Source: Octopus vulgaris
Lineage: Eukaryota
Length of the DNA stretch: 64,000 bases
Direction: 5' to 3'
NCBI GenBank assembly: GCA_951406725.2
Contig: OX597825.1
Span: forward strand, 16,058,001-16,122,000
The position numbers and the translations under genes are program-made. Under the pieces are notes generated by a model. It saw only the letters and a program-made list of their open reading frames with translations. It made no database searches and had not been told where the DNA came from. This document shows positions 14,211 through 58,190 of the stretch, piece after piece (the stretch's first letter is position 1; every line of letters starts with the position of its first letter).

Positions 14211-14372
14211 ACATATACAACAGGTTTCTTTAAGTTTCTGTCTACTAAATTCACTCCCAGGGCTTTGATCAGCCTGAGGCTATAGTAGAAGACAGTTGCC
14301 CAAGGTGCCACACAGTGGGACTGAACCCGGAACCATGTGGTTGGTAAACAAGCTACTTACCACACAGCCACT
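13950..14372 (-). mobile_element. SINE family A
   Basis: Reverse complement of the family A sequence. Confidence 0.82.
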
Positions 14373-15195
14373 CAATAAGATGTACCCAGTGTAAGCTATG
14401 GACACATAAGAGGTGCAGCAGTATCAAAGGAAGGCTAACTGGGAAGATAGTTTTTGTATGTGGCAGATGCTCAGGAGCGATAAACAATGAAAATGTGCAG
14501 AGAAAAACCTCTGCCATATTCCAGGGAGAAAAACTAGAAGTAGTTGATAGCTTCCGTTACCTAGGTGACCAAGTCAGTAGTGGAGGTGGGTGCTCTGAAA
14601 GTGTAGCTGCTAGAGTAAAAATAGCCTGGGCAAAGTTCAGAGAGCTCTTACCTCTACTGGTGACAAAGGGCCTGTATGACGCATGTGTACAAACAGCCAT
14701 GCTACATGGCAGTGAAACATGGGCCGTGACTGCTGAGGACATGTGTAAGCTCGCAAGGAATGAAGCCAGTATGCTCCGATGGATGTGTAATGTCAGTGTG
14801 CATACTCAACAGAGTGTAAGTGCCTTGAGAGAAAAGTTGGACCTAAGAAGCATCAGATGTGGTGTGTAAGAGAGACGATTGCGCTGGTATGGTCATGTGG
14901 TGAGAATGGATGAGGATAGCTGTGTGAAGAAGTGTCACATCCTAGTGGTTGAGGGAACCTGTGGAAGAGGTAGGCCCAGGAAGACCTGGGATGAAGTGGT
15001 GAAGCATGACCTTCGGACATTAGGCCTCACTGAGGCAGTGACTATTGACTGAGATCTTTGGAAATATGCTGTGCTTGAGAAGAACCGCCAAGCCAAGTGA
15101 GACCATAACCCATGGCCTATGCCAGTGGTGTAACCATCCCACTTATGCGTACCTTTCCTTCTTTGGACAATAAATTCTGCTTGCGAAAACCTGTT
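14372..15195 (+). mobile_element. 5'-truncated RTE-clade LINE: RT C-terminal region (pseudogenised) and start of 3' UTR
   Basis: Frame 14372-15100 reads ..LEVVDSFRYLG..AARVKIAWAKFREL..HGSETW..RRLRWYGHVVRM..GRGRPRKTW, with a premature TAA at 14867-14869. Confidence 0.9.
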
Positions 15196-29228: not shown

Positions 29229-30158
29229 CTTTCTCCTTCCCTCCTGAGCCGTCTAAACTTCCCTTCACTCTCAACATCCAGAGCCTTTACACGGTGATCC
29301 CTCACTATGAGGAGCTGCGTGCACTCCAGCATTTCCTTGACCTTCAACTCAACCCCCAACCCGACATCGACACTCGTTTGCTGGTGATTTCTACCAGTAG
29401 TTCTCGGGAGTGGCCATGGGAATGAGAATGGGCCCCGACTATGCAAACCTATTCGTTGGCTACATTGAGACCCAAATATTCTCAAGTTTCACTGGTTCCA
29501 CTCCCAAACTATATGACCATTATATTGACGACAGTATTGGTGCGACCCCACTCTCTCGCGAACATCTAGACTCCTTCTTCTCTTTTGTCAAATCGTTCCA
29601 TCCTGCCCTCCACTTCTCCTGCACTATCTCTGACACCTCTGTCTCCTTTCTTGACATTTTGGTCAGCATTCATCACCCCACTCTTACTACCTCCATCCCC
29701 TACAAATGCACAGACTCACACTCATACCTCAACTTCTTCTCCTCCTACCACAAACACACCAAGCTCTCCATCCCCTATTTCCAATTCCTCTGTCTACGCA
29801 GGCTCTGTAGTGACGACCATGACTTTAAGACCCAGTCTCAACTCATGGTTCGCCACTTCATCCTACGTGGATGTCTCCTTCCCACTATCCACACCGCCCT
29901 TGTCAGAGCATGTTCCATGGACCATGCATCTGCTCCCCCCCCTCCGAACCTGCCCTGCAACCTCCCGTTTCCTCTTACCTACCAACCCACCACCCTACTT
30001 CGCCAATGCACCATTCTCCGAGCCTTCCAGCGACTCCAGTTCAACCCCTCCACTTTGGACATCTTCCCTAACCAACCCCTCCCCTCCTTCAAACAAGCCC
30101 ACAACCTACGAGACCTCTTGGTCCAGTGTCTTCCCTAACCCAACCTCCCAACCCAGCT
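29229..30158 (+). mobile_element. Penelope-like element reverse transcriptase fragment (decayed)
   Basis: Motifs FTLNIQSLYTVIPH, AMGMRMGPDYANLFVG, YIDD, FHPALHFS, SFLDI, TDSHSYL..SS.H...K.SIPY.QFL.LRRLCS are characteristic of PLE RT. Internal deletion and frameshift; no GIY-YIG domain retained. Confidence 0.88.
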
Positions 30159-32745: not shown

Positions 32746-33028
32746 ATAATATTAATTAGAGACAAAACCACTATTATACAAATCAAACAAAGAAAGACTT
32801 AATCCAATACATAAAAAATTTTATATAAATTAAATATAATTAAGATATCCACTACGATCGTTTCTTGTCATTTCTATTGACATTCATCAGGTGGTTTCAA
32901 GACCTTCTTTGCAAGTTTTTAACTGATAGTAGTAGATATCTTAATTATATTTAATTTATATAAAATTTTTTATGTATTGGATTAAATCTTTCTTTGTATG
33001 ATTTGAATAATAGTGGTTTTGTCTCTAA

Positions 33029-33273: not shown

Positions 33274-33754
33274 TGTCACATTTTATATTTACAGATAAAT
33301 TCCTCTATTTACATAATATCAAGGTCTCTTTCATTCTTTTGCTCTTTTACCATTTCTATCAATATATATACATATTTACATAATATTAGGGAGTATAACT
33401 CCAAACTTTCAGGGAAAGATTCAATTTAGTATTAAATCAAATTTCACAATCTAAATATAAATTAGAGAAAAAAAACCATGATAGATCACTTTTGTGATCT
33501 AGTTATATATTTTTAAAAATATTTTTTATTTTTTATTTATGATTAGGTTTATGTCTATCATTGTTTGAATTGCATGATGGTGGTTTTTTTCTCTAATTTA
33601 TACATATATATATAAGACACGTCAGCTAATTATAATCACTGTCTTCCACACATGCAGGTTTGTCCTTTCAGGTGCTGGTGCCACATAAAAGGCACCTGTG
33701 CCACTGCTGTGTTAATGCACCCCCTGCACTGGTGCTGCATAAATGCACCCATGA

Positions 33755-33930
33755 TCTCTCTCTTTCCGCTCAGTCGAAGTTGGCTCTCGGTCACTTGTTG
33801 GCTCAGTGTCCTCCCGTCAGTTCTATCCTGGGCCGCTTCCTTCAGATTGGCCATGTCCATTCCGGTATCACTCTTGATGATGTCAAGCCAGTGGGTTCTT
33901 GGTCGGCCTCTTCCTCTCTTACCAGTGACC
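33755..33930 (-). mobile_element. RTE-like LINE RT C-terminal remnant
   Basis: VTGKRGRGRPRTHWLDIIKSDTG...AAQDR. Confidence 0.7.
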
Positions 33931-34627
33931 CATGATAGTGACACATAAAAAGCACCCAGCACTCTCTGTTTAGTGGTTGGCTTTTGGAAGGGCATCCAGC
34001 CATAGACACAATGTCACAACATACAGTTGGAGTATGGACATCCTTTAGCCAGCTCCATGTCAAACCATCCAACCCATGCCAACATGGAAAGTGCAGACGT
34101 TAAACGATGATGATGATATATGTATATCGCCTGGATCAGCCAAGCTGTCTGGTGCCGAGTTGACTCCACTGGCTGCAGCATTTGCTCCATTCCTCTCGTG
34201 CTCTTGTCATTCTCTTCCACATTGTTCCAAATATTTATCTTAAATCATCTTCCCACCTGATTTGGAGGTCTTCCGAGTGGTCTCTTCCATTCGTTGTGAC
34301 TTAGCAATCTGCCTGATTCCTAGGTTAATCTGTTGCAGGGTTACCCCTTCGCAGCTGAGTGAACTGGAACAGCACAGAAGAAGTGTTTTGCTCAAGAACG
34401 CAACACACCACTCAGCACGGGAATTGAAGCCATGATCTCCCAATCGTGAGTGCAACATCCTAACCACTGGGCCATGTACCTTCGCACACACACGTCTGTG
34501 TGTGTGTGTGAGAGAGAGAGGGAGAAAGAAAGAAAAGAAAATAATGAAGATGTCAGGGAGTAAAAATACCACTTCTCTTCCTTAACAGGCAAATATCATT
34601 TCCATTAATATTTAAGCTAAATGTATC

Positions 34628-35610: not shown

Positions 35611-35943
35611 TATATTTATAAAAAAGAAGTTTGAAAACGCCACTATATAAGATACATTTTAATTTTCTTAGAAATTTTACATGTTTCGGTTCTTCTTGAA
35701 AAAACGAACCTTATCAAAAATATTTTTAAAAGTTTAGTGTAATAAAAAAGTTCATAATTGTTTCTTACTGGTCTCAACAGAATCCACGTGGTTTTTTTTA
35801 GCTGTTTTATGTGTCCGAATGACCAGTGGCTGAAATGGCAGTAGCAGCAGTGACTGTTGGTCGTAGTAGTAGTAACCGAAACATGTAAAATTTCTAAGAA
35901 AATTAAACTTAATCTTATATAGTGACATTTTCAAACTTCTTTT

Positions 35944-38288: not shown

Positions 38289-38902
38289 TAATGCACTAAA
38301 AAGTAATTTTTTTCTTTGTTTATGCGATGTTGTTATTATTGTGCATCAAATATGCTTATATGTTTTTATTTTTTTTGCCATCAAATATGGTAAATAATTT
38401 CTTGATTTAAAGAACAATAATTCCATCATTCTTTTATGCCATTATGTCTATTTAACAATAAATATTTAATCCTTCAGTGTTCAGATTACTCTGTCAAATG
38501 CAAAGTTTATGTATTCACATTATTTTCAAGTAATCAGACATTATTTCATAGCTTTGGGATTTTGAAGGTGTGATTGTCTATTTTTAGAATTACATTGCAG
38601 GGTAGGTGTGAGAGGCCAAATCTAGCCAGGTTGAACATAAAACATATTCTACATGTTTTATGTGGCTGGTTTAAATGATAAATAAGTTAAAGAAATTCAA
38701 TTAAAATCATCATCATCATCATTTAACATCTGCTTTCCATGCTGGCATGGGTTGGATGGTTTGACTGAAGACTGGCAAGCCAGGGGACTGCTCCGGGTTA
38801 ATGAAATTGATGAAGAACAGTAAAAACTAAGATGTACTTGCATAGCAAGTGACTTGATCTGAGACTGTATGCTGAAACAGAAACAATTGCAGCATGGAAG
38901 AT

Positions 38903-39302
38903 TACTCTTTTACTCTTTTACTTGTTTCAGTCATTTGACTGCGGCCATGCTGGAGCACTGCCTTTAATCGAGCAACTCGATCCCGGGGCTTATTCTTTTG
39001 TAAGCCCAGTACTTATTTTATCGGTCTCTTTTGCCGAACCACTAAGTAACTGGGACATAAACACACTGGCATTGGTTGTCAAGCAGTGCCAGGGGGACAA
39101 ACACAGACACACAAACACATAAACGCATATATATATATACATATATATGACGGGCTTCTTTCAGTTTCCGTCTAACAAATCCACTCACAAGGCTTTGGTC
39201 GGCCCAAGGCTATAGTAGAAGACACTTGCCCAAGGTGCCATGCAGTGGGATTGAACCCGGAACCATGTGGTTGGTAAACAAGCTACTTACCACACAGCCA
39301 CT
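38903..39302 (-). mobile_element. SINE family A
   Basis: Full reverse-complement copy. Confidence 0.85.
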
Positions 39303-39524
39303 GTTTATGTGTCATTTAAAAAACACGCAAAAACCGTTAGATTCACTTCAGCATTTAAATTTAATTTGTGTCAAAATATTTTTGTTGCTTTGATGCAGCA
39401 CAAAATTTTGTCAGTGAACAGGTCACAGTGTCAAAGCGACAAATATATTTTGATACAAATTAAACTTAAATGTTGAAGTGAGTCTAACGGCTTTTTTGTG
39501 TGTTTTTTAAATGGCATATAAACA
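39303..39524. repeat. Fold-back inverted repeat (~91-bp arms)
   Basis: 39303-39393 pairs with 39431-39524. Confidence 0.87.
39409..39455 (+). ncRNA. Hammerhead-like fold, G3-C8 core variant, decayed copy (family 7)
   Basis: TGTCA-GTGAACA(39414-39420)-GGTCAC..GCGAC-AAAT-ATAT-TT-TGATA. The GAAA box is not intact in either arm (left arm reads CAAAA). Confidence 0.5.
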
Positions 39525-40016
39525 CCTTCCGTGCTACAGTAAAAATTAAATCATGTTATATGGTACATTATTTGTCCTAATCTTATTATTGATTGTTTGG
39601 CTAAAACCTTCAAGGAGGTGCTCCACCTTGGCCACCTTCCAATGACTGAAGCAAATAAAAAGTAAAGAGTATAGTTTATATATATATATATATATCATCA
39701 TCGCTAGAGTTTATATATATATATCATCATCGCTGGTGCAGCCATCTGGCTCACCAGTCCTCAGTCAAATCGTCCAACCCATGCTAGCATGGAAAGCGGA
39801 CGTTAAATGATGATGATGATGTCATCATCATCATTTAATATCTGTTTTCAACACTGGCATAGGGTGGGGCGGTTTGACCAGAGCTGGCAAGTTGGAGACT
39901 TGCATCAAATTCCAGTCTGATTTGGCATTGCTTCTATGGCTGGATATTCTTCTTAATGTTTTATATATATATATATATTAATTGCAGTGTACAGTGTTAT
40001 ATATCCATTATGGCTG

Positions 40017-57189: not shown

Positions 57190-58190
57190 AGATATGAGCA
57201 GTTCCCATGTGCACTATTTTTTACATTTCTTCCATTTTGGGATTTCCTGGTATGTGAGATAGGTAGCAACCAGCTCCTTTTGTTATCATTCCTAGGGCAC
57301 CTAAACCAACAGGTATTGTCTTAAGGTTCCACATTTTACCAATTTTTATTTCAAGGTTTTTATACTTGCTGAGTTTTTGGTAGGTCTTGACAGATGCATT
57401 TATGTTGATTGGGACAGTCATATCAATGAGCAGGCATGATTTTTGTTTGAAATCCTTCAATGTAGTGTCTGGCCTATTTGCATCTATCTTTCTGTCAGTT
57501 TGAATGGTGAAGTTCCAATGGAGTGAGATGTGGCCATTTTCAAGCTCTGGAGGTGGTTTGTGTTCCCACCAGTTTTTATCATGGAGCAGGTCCAGGTCTT
57601 TGCAAATTACCCAATGAATATATTGTGCCACTCTATCATGCCTGTTGAGGCACAAGAAGGCTGCACATGGAGACATCATCATCATCGTTTAACGTCTGCT
57701 TTCCATGCTAGCATGGGTTGGATGATTTGACTGAGGACTGGTGAACCAGATGGTTGCACCAGGCTCCAATCTTGATCTGGCAGAGTTTCTACAACTGGAT
57801 GCCCTTCCTAACGCCAACCACTCTGAGAGTGTAGTGGGTGCTTTTATGTGGTACTGGCAACATGATAAATTATTTCATTTTGCTGCTTACATACATGGCA
57901 TATTGGGCTACTTCCATTCTTAAGTTGTTGGCCTGGTAGCTTCTTGTAGGTAGCCATTGATCCTGTGCTGCTATGATAAACCCTTCTGTCTCTGCTTTTA
58001 AGCCAGAAGATACTAACCATTGATGGGTGAGGGCTTTGTCAACATCAACGTGATTTGCATTCTCACTATTCAAAGTCAGTGTAGTTTTCCATGATCTCAT
58101 ACTTACAGACATGAAGTTTTGCAGAATAGGTGCTATTTCATGAATTTCCAAACATTTCTCAATCCAGCTATGAGGCAGACTATCAAAAGT
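57190..58190 (-). mobile_element. R4/Dong-like non-LTR retrotransposon C-terminal fragment (restriction-like endonuclease), interrupted by an RTE tail at ~57675-57850
   Basis: [22 protein letters not shown]; RHDRVAQYIHW; W.F.IQTDRKIDANRPD; LID..VP; K..KY..L; IPV.LGALG. Confidence 0.85.

Follow-up and report, generated by a model that had tools for sequence, protein, structure and literature searches.

A hammerhead-like motif with a G3-C8 pair in the pseudo-LTRs of a Penelope-like retrotransposon of Octopus vulgaris

A short segment of the Octopus vulgaris genome carries what looks like a hammerhead ribozyme in which GTGAACA stands where CTGANGA is expected. It lies at 39303-39524 of the window, by which we mean the whole stretch of 64,000 nucleotides that was analysed (contig OX597825.1, positions 16,058,001 to 16,122,000 of the forward strand). 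The original prediction saw in this box a swapped catalytic pair, G3-C8, and a natural family that standard searches would miss. The locus raises the question whether such a family exists, which genetic element carries it, and whether a hammerhead with this pair can be expected to work.

The element in the window

On re-reading the plus strand, we found all hammerhead parts named in the original prediction at their place. The element to which they belong is larger than the segment first flagged and spans 38830-39538, with the following features:

38817-38830, no strand: left copy of a target-site-duplication-like 14-mer, 13 of 14 letters identical to 39536-39549
38830-38900, minus strand: outer portion of the inverted arm, including the one-sided tail, where the reading frame of a Penelope-like element (PLE) starts, 87% to the natural copy L048
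38901-39301, no strand: unrelated ~400-bp interspersed repeat inside the inverted arm, not part of the element
39302-39393, minus strand: inner portion of the inverted arm, truncated at its 5' side within loop II, with the 3' half of the hammerhead only and G12 lost
39375-39380: palindrome AATATT, in the left arm
39394-39538, plus strand: sense arm of the pseudo-LTR, finishing at the short tail-less end, 88% to L048
39407-39457, plus strand: minimal type I hammerhead motif, with N17 = U at 39450
39407-39413, plus strand: 5' strand of stem I
39414-39420, plus strand: GTGAACA box, with G3 at 39414 and C8 at 39419
39421, plus strand: extra G
39422-39426 and 39436-39440, plus strand: stem II, GTCAC and GCGAC
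39441-39444, plus strand: positions 12-15.1, AAAT where GAAA is expected
from 39451, plus strand: 3' strand of stem I, TGATA
39511-39538, plus strand: start of the PLE frame, an ATG and the codons after it (MAYKHLP...), truncated at the short end
39536-39549, no strand: right copy of the 14-mer, which pairs with the left copy at 38817-38830

The window element represents a fold-back copy, now decayed, of a pseudo-LTR (pLTR) from a Penelope-like retrotransposon. Its arms match at 39318-39393/39431-39506 (76 nt, 87%) and at 39302-39333/39493-39524, with a predicted folding energy of -124.2 kcal/mol. The fold-back of ~91 bp described at the outset stands as regards pairing (about 92 bp), but not as regards extent, since the element reaches from 38830 to 39538 and its left arm is split by the ~400-bp repeat. 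The latter accounts for 26 blastn pieces within the window, itself included, and 11 others among those listed are at 73-90%.

Relative to the family described below, the window copy has changes at 10.4, 12 (G>A), 15.1 (A>T) and 1.4, as well as at two loop positions. G12 is absent from both arms, as had been noted, position 12 being A in each, and the decay of a CpG that was suggested for the loss of G12 fits, other CpG letters of stem II varying likewise in the family and in contigs. The type I order of the family, with stem I closing the motif and stem II starting from G10.1-C11.1, is broken here: for the window copy one long hairpin is predicted, and not stems I and II, which are predicted for two intact copies. 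G12 is the general base of the hammerhead (PMC8495972); because it is lost, together with A15.1, and because the copy folds as one long hairpin, the window copy itself is likely dead, a fossil.

Several other segments of the window deserve mention. A decayed reverse transcriptase (RT) fragment of a very abundant Neptune-like PLE lies at 29401-30138 (plus strand); as a candidate parent of the element it was rejected, as it belongs to this other family and has no link to the element. A canonical CTGATGA ... GAAA motif, decayed and having a short stem II, is present at 32890 (minus strand). The motif at 35717 (minus strand), with those at L379, L075, L071, L104 and L024, represents at least three hammerhead-like families with U3-A8 cores. 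Frames at 14348-14869, 33636-34013 and 57221-57688 resemble pieces of non-LTR retrotransposon proteins, as judged by eye.

The G3-C8 family and its retrotransposon carrier

Searching the genome with the element yielded 3,100 first-look candidates, the best 40 scored being 82-88% identical. In 30 aligned copies the order is stem I, GUGAACA, G, GUCGC/GCGAC, GAAA, AUAU, U, U17 and stem I. The proposed natural G3-C8 family is real and its motif is not a product of chance: a 43-nt stretch that holds both GTGAACA and CGAAA, boxes that also co-occur in the family consensus, has 935 exact copies in the genome and none in the control (15 of 30 fetched loci of this stretch share flanks and represent one insertion carried inside another repeat). 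This larger carrier repeat of nested inverted pieces has spread one fold-back copy (L033, L040-L042, L047, L049-L052, L054-L062). Inward-facing motif pairs 2.7 kb apart, considered as element ends, were rejected, being such a hitchhiking copy inside another repeat.

Fixation of the core was assessed in 76 arms whose loci had been selected by the tail or by an anchor downstream, not by the core, after 24 hitchhiker arms had been removed from a total of 181. G3 and C8, whose fixation was at stake in the prediction, are nearly fixed (49 of 50 and 49 of 51 readable letters), as are G12 (55 of 58), A13 (58 of 60) and U17 (62 of 62). The extra G follows A9 in 51 of 51 arms, the palindrome AAUAUU takes the place of stem III and U16.1-H17 is kept. 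Instead of CUGANGA, 142 of 151 arms from loci not picked on core letters have GUGAACA; a Watson-Crick 3-8 pair is possible in the family, and U4, G5, A6 and A9 are kept. When letters 3 and 8 were allowed to vary in a less strict pattern, 2,458 matches were obtained (control, 0), most of them belonging to a younger subfamily with another loop II, and G3-C8 is found in 96 of the first 100 matches listed. The same core was recovered from all four public runs from four organisms: in contigs at least 85% alike to the family, no other letter reaches 5% at core positions 3-9, and CpG letters of stem II vary. G3-C8 is present in young and in older lineages whose ORF DNA is 82-87% alike, the young copies being 97-99% identical and ORF-bearing, and it has been kept over 13-18% ORF divergence while loop II changed.

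Stems I and II form the minimum-energy fold of family copies (z -2.3 and -2.1). The AAUAUU duplex accounts for only -0.2 kcal/mol, and the dimer is predicted without stem III. That standard searches miss the family holds for the CUGANGA pattern, but the blank in Rfam is not due to the swap. Rfam gave no match in the window at gathering score and no hammerhead on an intact family copy at E up to 10; it missed two canonical minimal hammerhead controls alike, and its silence is thus uninformative on the swap. On other stem II sequences, G3-C8 was matched 75 times versus 79 in the control, i.e., at chance level, and four such candidates that were inspected have no clear stem I or family.

Going beyond the original prediction, we found that the element is a PLE pLTR with an autonomous parent, reached through motif pairs 2.5 kb apart. 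The family is the pLTR of an endonuclease-bearing PLE, young and present in thousands of copies. The parent unit of about 4.26 kb consists of a pLTR, an ATG ~90 nt after G3 (~55 nt after the cut site of the motif), an ORF of ~1,050 aa in long copies, encoding RT plus GIY-YIG at its C-terminal end, a ~1-kb microsatellite-rich 3' UTR and the next pLTR. A 994-aa open frame (L308) matches Pfam GIY-YIG at E 1.6e-5; the RT domain is weak, RVT_1 being recorded below the cut-off (E 0.0017) and only in the related family B. The parent frame has 233 homologues, two of them named as RT-domain proteins, and carries a cysteine motif in the RT-EN linker. A related frame is 98.6% identical to a protein recorded under the name O. 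vulgaris. At four loci (L329, L341, L343, L345) the ATG and tail of the pLTR continue into the RT/GIY-YIG frame, and at L310 the motif occurs twice, 4,261 nt apart on one strand, flanking a frameshifted ORF. No frame intact from ATG to stop was found among the copies examined.

Longer copies have the RT C-terminus and GIY-YIG about 1 kb upstream of the motif. Of 6,248 candidates from a protein search, 118 matched, ~30 of these at 97-99% identity and with no stops over 350 aa. Among 99 rows for the 3' end of the ORF, in which some places are counted twice, 76 have G3-C8 downstream, 20 are without a readable core and three have another one. A genome search with tail peptides returned 14,930 candidates, with no long frame in the 150 scored and with 16 longer frames that ran into target DNA; a profile search with the same peptides gave four matches, one being a 167-aa protein that repeats the pLTR-to-ORF reading. 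Parent and Neptune-like family of the octopus genome are 22-25% identical. The parent may resemble members of the Nematis clade.

In short copies the second arm is inverted and truncated to varying extents, and only one end bears a tail, of ~60 nt. Altogether, the family has partial tandems forming pLTRs, an inverted 5'-truncated copy and the one-sided tail. Out of 51 fold-back copies with a tail, 27 reside in TA runs, and 17 of the 24 others have 9-14-bp AT-rich target duplications (control, 2 of 552 mismatched pairs). The endonuclease-bearing Neptune and Nematis PLEs (Craig et al. 2021, PMC8557442, and preprint) share the single ORF with C-terminal GIY-YIG, the cysteine motif in the RT-EN linker, partial tandems, the inverted 5'-truncated copy, the one-sided tail and microsatellite targets; their tails measure 30-40 nt as against about 60 nt here. 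The accessible text of the O. vulgaris repeat annotation lists active Penelope-like families and makes no mention of hammerheads (PMC13282606).

Another observation is a tandem run at L344 (1741-2970), with about seven 170-190-bp units, each with a G3-C8 motif, beside an ORF start. Such a run is, as judged from its sequence, a natural setting for motif dimers. Compared with non-LTR retrozymes, ORF-less tandem repeats from which small circular RNAs arise, the window copy consists of one fold-back whose parent is coding, and L344 is the one short tandem run.

The 5' ends of the copies bear on which RNA was copied. The family's usual 5' edge lies 20 nt before G3 (26 of 76 arms), and the sense arm of the window element starts there, at 39394. 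No peak of 5' ends was seen at the cut site among the 76 arms; two start there, both explained by microhomology. Upstream of the cut site the motif is complete in nearly all copies, which points to uncut RNA as the template. In long copies (L271, L310, L318, L336) a run resembling a branch point and a 3' splice site, such as a retained 5'-UTR intron of endonuclease-bearing PLEs would have, ends exactly at the usual 5' edge, and short copies may derive from RNA processed there. No splice joint at this edge was present in contigs of the four public runs and no common upstream exon among 11 short copies. The public-run contigs, putatively RNA, extend over the pLTR and portions of the ORF and show neither ends nor strand.

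Relatives and ancestry of the 3-8 pair

Family B, a young PLE 56% identical to the parent at the amino acid level (L315-L317; G000 C16, C1, C8), carries at the same place as the G3-C8 motif the core CUGAUGC (A9C, C3-G8), the extra G, GAAA and U16.1-U17. Its stem II, GUCAC/GUGAC, represents a change on both sides, and its stem I is different and bulged. A metagenome relative (L392; 42% aa) has CUGAAGA, the extra base, GAAA and a palindromic stem III; the metagenome scan gave three loci, one with a 3' motif. An older sister family (437 candidates, best 40 scored) is homologous beyond the motif and through the tail, at a score of 106 versus 55.8 +/- 5.4 (maximum 75.5) for 500 shuffles. Loop II, stem III and the spacer have changed in it; the two stems are retained, as are the extra G, GAAA and U16.1-U17. 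Its letters 3/8, readable in 28 of 39 arms, are U.G (11), C-A (9), C-G (5), U-A (2) and U-U (1).

Besides the G3-C8 family, a descriptor with free 3/8 letters, run on 1.44 Mb of fetched DNA from which loci picked on these letters were left out, found 25 cases of C3-G8, six of U3-A8 and five sister copies with U.G, C-A or U-U (reversed control, one match). Four old relatives with a 6-bp stem II (L179, L262, L263, L264) have C8 opposite A3 (three) or C3 (one), in a search that barred G3. Within the G3-C8 family, G3.G8 occurs in 8 of 151 arms at six loci, several beside ORF pieces, two loci partly duplicating each other. We rejected G3.G8 as a basal intermediate, as the two tree-placed copies nest, with weak support, among G3-C8 copies. 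The Neptune-like family of the same genome (11,759 candidates, intact frames of ~1,070 aa) has A6U (CUGUUGA) in all copies beside intact frames (L084-L086). A Watson-Crick 3-8 pair is present in each of the four families seen here that are linked to an ORF and have young or intact frames, namely the G3-C8 family, family B, the Neptune-like family and L392.

C3-G8 is likely ancestral and G3-C8 derived, because family B, L392 and the sister family share the scaffold with a related motif. Given the unpaired 3/8 states in relatives, the two letters may have changed one after the other and not as a coupled pair.

The motif has much in common with the minimal type I hammerheads of Cervera and de la Pena 2014 (PMC4209133): location in pLTRs, type I order, G10.1-C11.1, GAAA, an extra base between 9 and 10.1, a palindromic stem III for dimers, U16.1-H17 and pairs on opposite strands 100-700 bp apart. 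It differs by G3-C8 in place of C3-G8, an extra base G (published consensus H), a longer stem I (7-8 bp) and the weak AAUAUU stem III. Rows of Fig. S3 of that study have C3-G8, U3-A8 and one U3.G8; G3-C8 is absent from the motif rows covered. Natural 3/8 covariation is shared with the core variants of Perreault et al. 2011 (PMC3088659), which in the portion consulted names U3-A8 only and does not deal with minimal PLE motifs. Six word forms of the G3-C8 core are absent from the text of 11 supplement PDFs of that study, as distinct from sequences given only in figures. Natural U3-A8 and engineered G3-C8 are thus already in print, and a natural G3-C8 was not found there: our literature searches, in which Lünse et al. 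(RNA Biol 14:1499), the survey that covers most PLE hammerhead variants, Przybilski and Hammann 2007 and Nelson and Uhlenbeck 2008 figured as references only, returned engineered cases only.

Activity, mechanism and meaning

The G3-C8 motif is not a new kind of ribozyme. At the family level it is probably a real hammerhead variant, slow and assisted by dimerisation or by protein. The explanation we favour, with a probability of roughly 55%, is that intact copies self-cleave slowly after U17, probably only as dimers or helped by the protein of the element.

This explanation leans on the anole Poseidon element PAc (Frangieh et al. 2024, PMC11167929), in which AT-rich DNA is nicked by the PLE protein, which initiates reverse transcription at two positions near the start of the ORF, giving rise to the tail. 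Uncut RNA is the main template there, and the hammerhead does not cleave unless the protein is present; cleavage is lost in the single mutants C3G and G8C and comes back in part in the C3G/G8C double mutant. Catalytic mutants left PLE insertion in vitro unimpaired, cleavage being dispensable for it (PMC11167929). Rescue of G8C by C3G was also reported in PMC8495972, and a G3-C8 variant was more active without C17, which the source gives as 'data not shown' (PMC3884650). The octopus family shares with engineered PAc the swapped pair, the PLE context, a tail between two early-ORF starts of reverse transcription and AT-rich targets (PMC11167929). In the octopus the swap is natural, fixed and present in thousands of copies, and the ATG lies past the cut site, whereas in PAc it is inside stem II.

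Window-type copies would accordingly arise, by analogy with PAc, through target-primed reverse transcription of uncleaved RNA. Two starts within the first ~30 codons would leave a tail at one end only, which is what the copies have; the inverted, truncated second copy would arise by the same route, short copies being 5'-truncated products. Two motifs would pair via AAUAUU and form stem III, either in tandem transcripts or in trans. G3-C8 would hold position 8 in place, with its ribose acting at a reduced rate, and U17 would avoid a competing G3-C17 pair. Since the relatives have U17 too, it would be a permissive background and not an adaptation.

Alternatively, the motif may be hammerhead-derived and non-catalytic, its fold serving as a structural or protein-binding signal of the 5' UTR next to a likely 3' splice site and the start codon, with positions 3 and 8 drifting and the G3-C8 pair accidental. 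We regard this as possible, short of an even chance. Unpaired 3/8 states are indeed spread among relatives, but Watson-Crick pairing is retained in all four families seen here whose linked ORF has a young or intact frame, and U3.G8 is also found in the published list of PLE hammerheads, in Saccoglossus (PMC4209133). A9C in family B, A6U in the Neptune-like family and the very weak stem III would suit a non-catalytic signal, yet U4, G5, GAAA, U16.1 and H17 are all retained in the G3-C8 family, whose pair has outlasted the divergence of the ORF despite the change of loop II. From work on other PLEs, one may add in its favour that insertion in vitro is independent of cleavage and that no RNA ends were recorded at the anole site (PMC11167929), and that Naiads multiply without canonical hammerheads (PMC8557442).

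Very unlikely, in our opinion, is a fully active hammerhead that works in the cell at the speed of canonical PLE ones and cuts tandem transcripts to unit-length or circular templates, a model proposed in PMC4209133. The tandem motifs 4.26 kb apart on one strand and the short tandem runs of the motif-bearing arm (L344) would provide it with substrates, but nearly all copies hold the whole motif, so that uncut RNA was the template; moreover, rescue by the swap is only partial in print (PMC11167929, PMC8495972) and minimal PLE hammerheads cleave poorly even as dimers (PMC4209133). That the element is a MITE or another palindromic DNA repeat, resembling a hammerhead by chance, is scarcely credible despite the long fold-back, the thousands of short copies and the lack of an Rfam match, which canonical controls lack too: instead of equal terminal inverted repeats, a short fixed target duplication and a transposase partner, we found unequal arms, varying truncation points, a one-sided tail and 9-14-bp AT-rich duplications, relatives bear a canonical core at the same place, and the link to the ORF, which makes the sequence the 5' end of an RT and GIY-YIG element, refutes it.

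Returning to slow, assisted cleavage, a broader and rather doubtful extension is that PLEs tune their ribozyme down without losing it. Three ORF-bearing families in one genome, unrelated or only distantly related, would each have kept the fold and fixed a different core change that lowers the rate (G3-C8, A9C and A6U). Uncut RNA would be the template for copying, and cleavage would be wanted only late and under control of the element's protein.

The role of PLE hammerheads is described as an open question (PMC8557442, PMC11167929). The 3-8 pair was proved by an artificial swap, and a natural swap, fixed in an element that was mobile until recently, would demonstrate that living systems can use the alternative. 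Searches by the CUGANGA pattern would undercount hammerheads by thousands within a single genome. Furthermore, the clade offers natural alleles on one scaffold (C-G, G-C, G.G, U.G and C-A), and the near-intact coding parent makes cleavage rate and copy success directly comparable between them. If the tuning of the ribozyme holds true, nature would provide a test case for it in the G3-C8 family, which has been mobile recently and has its own unpaired intermediates in the genome.
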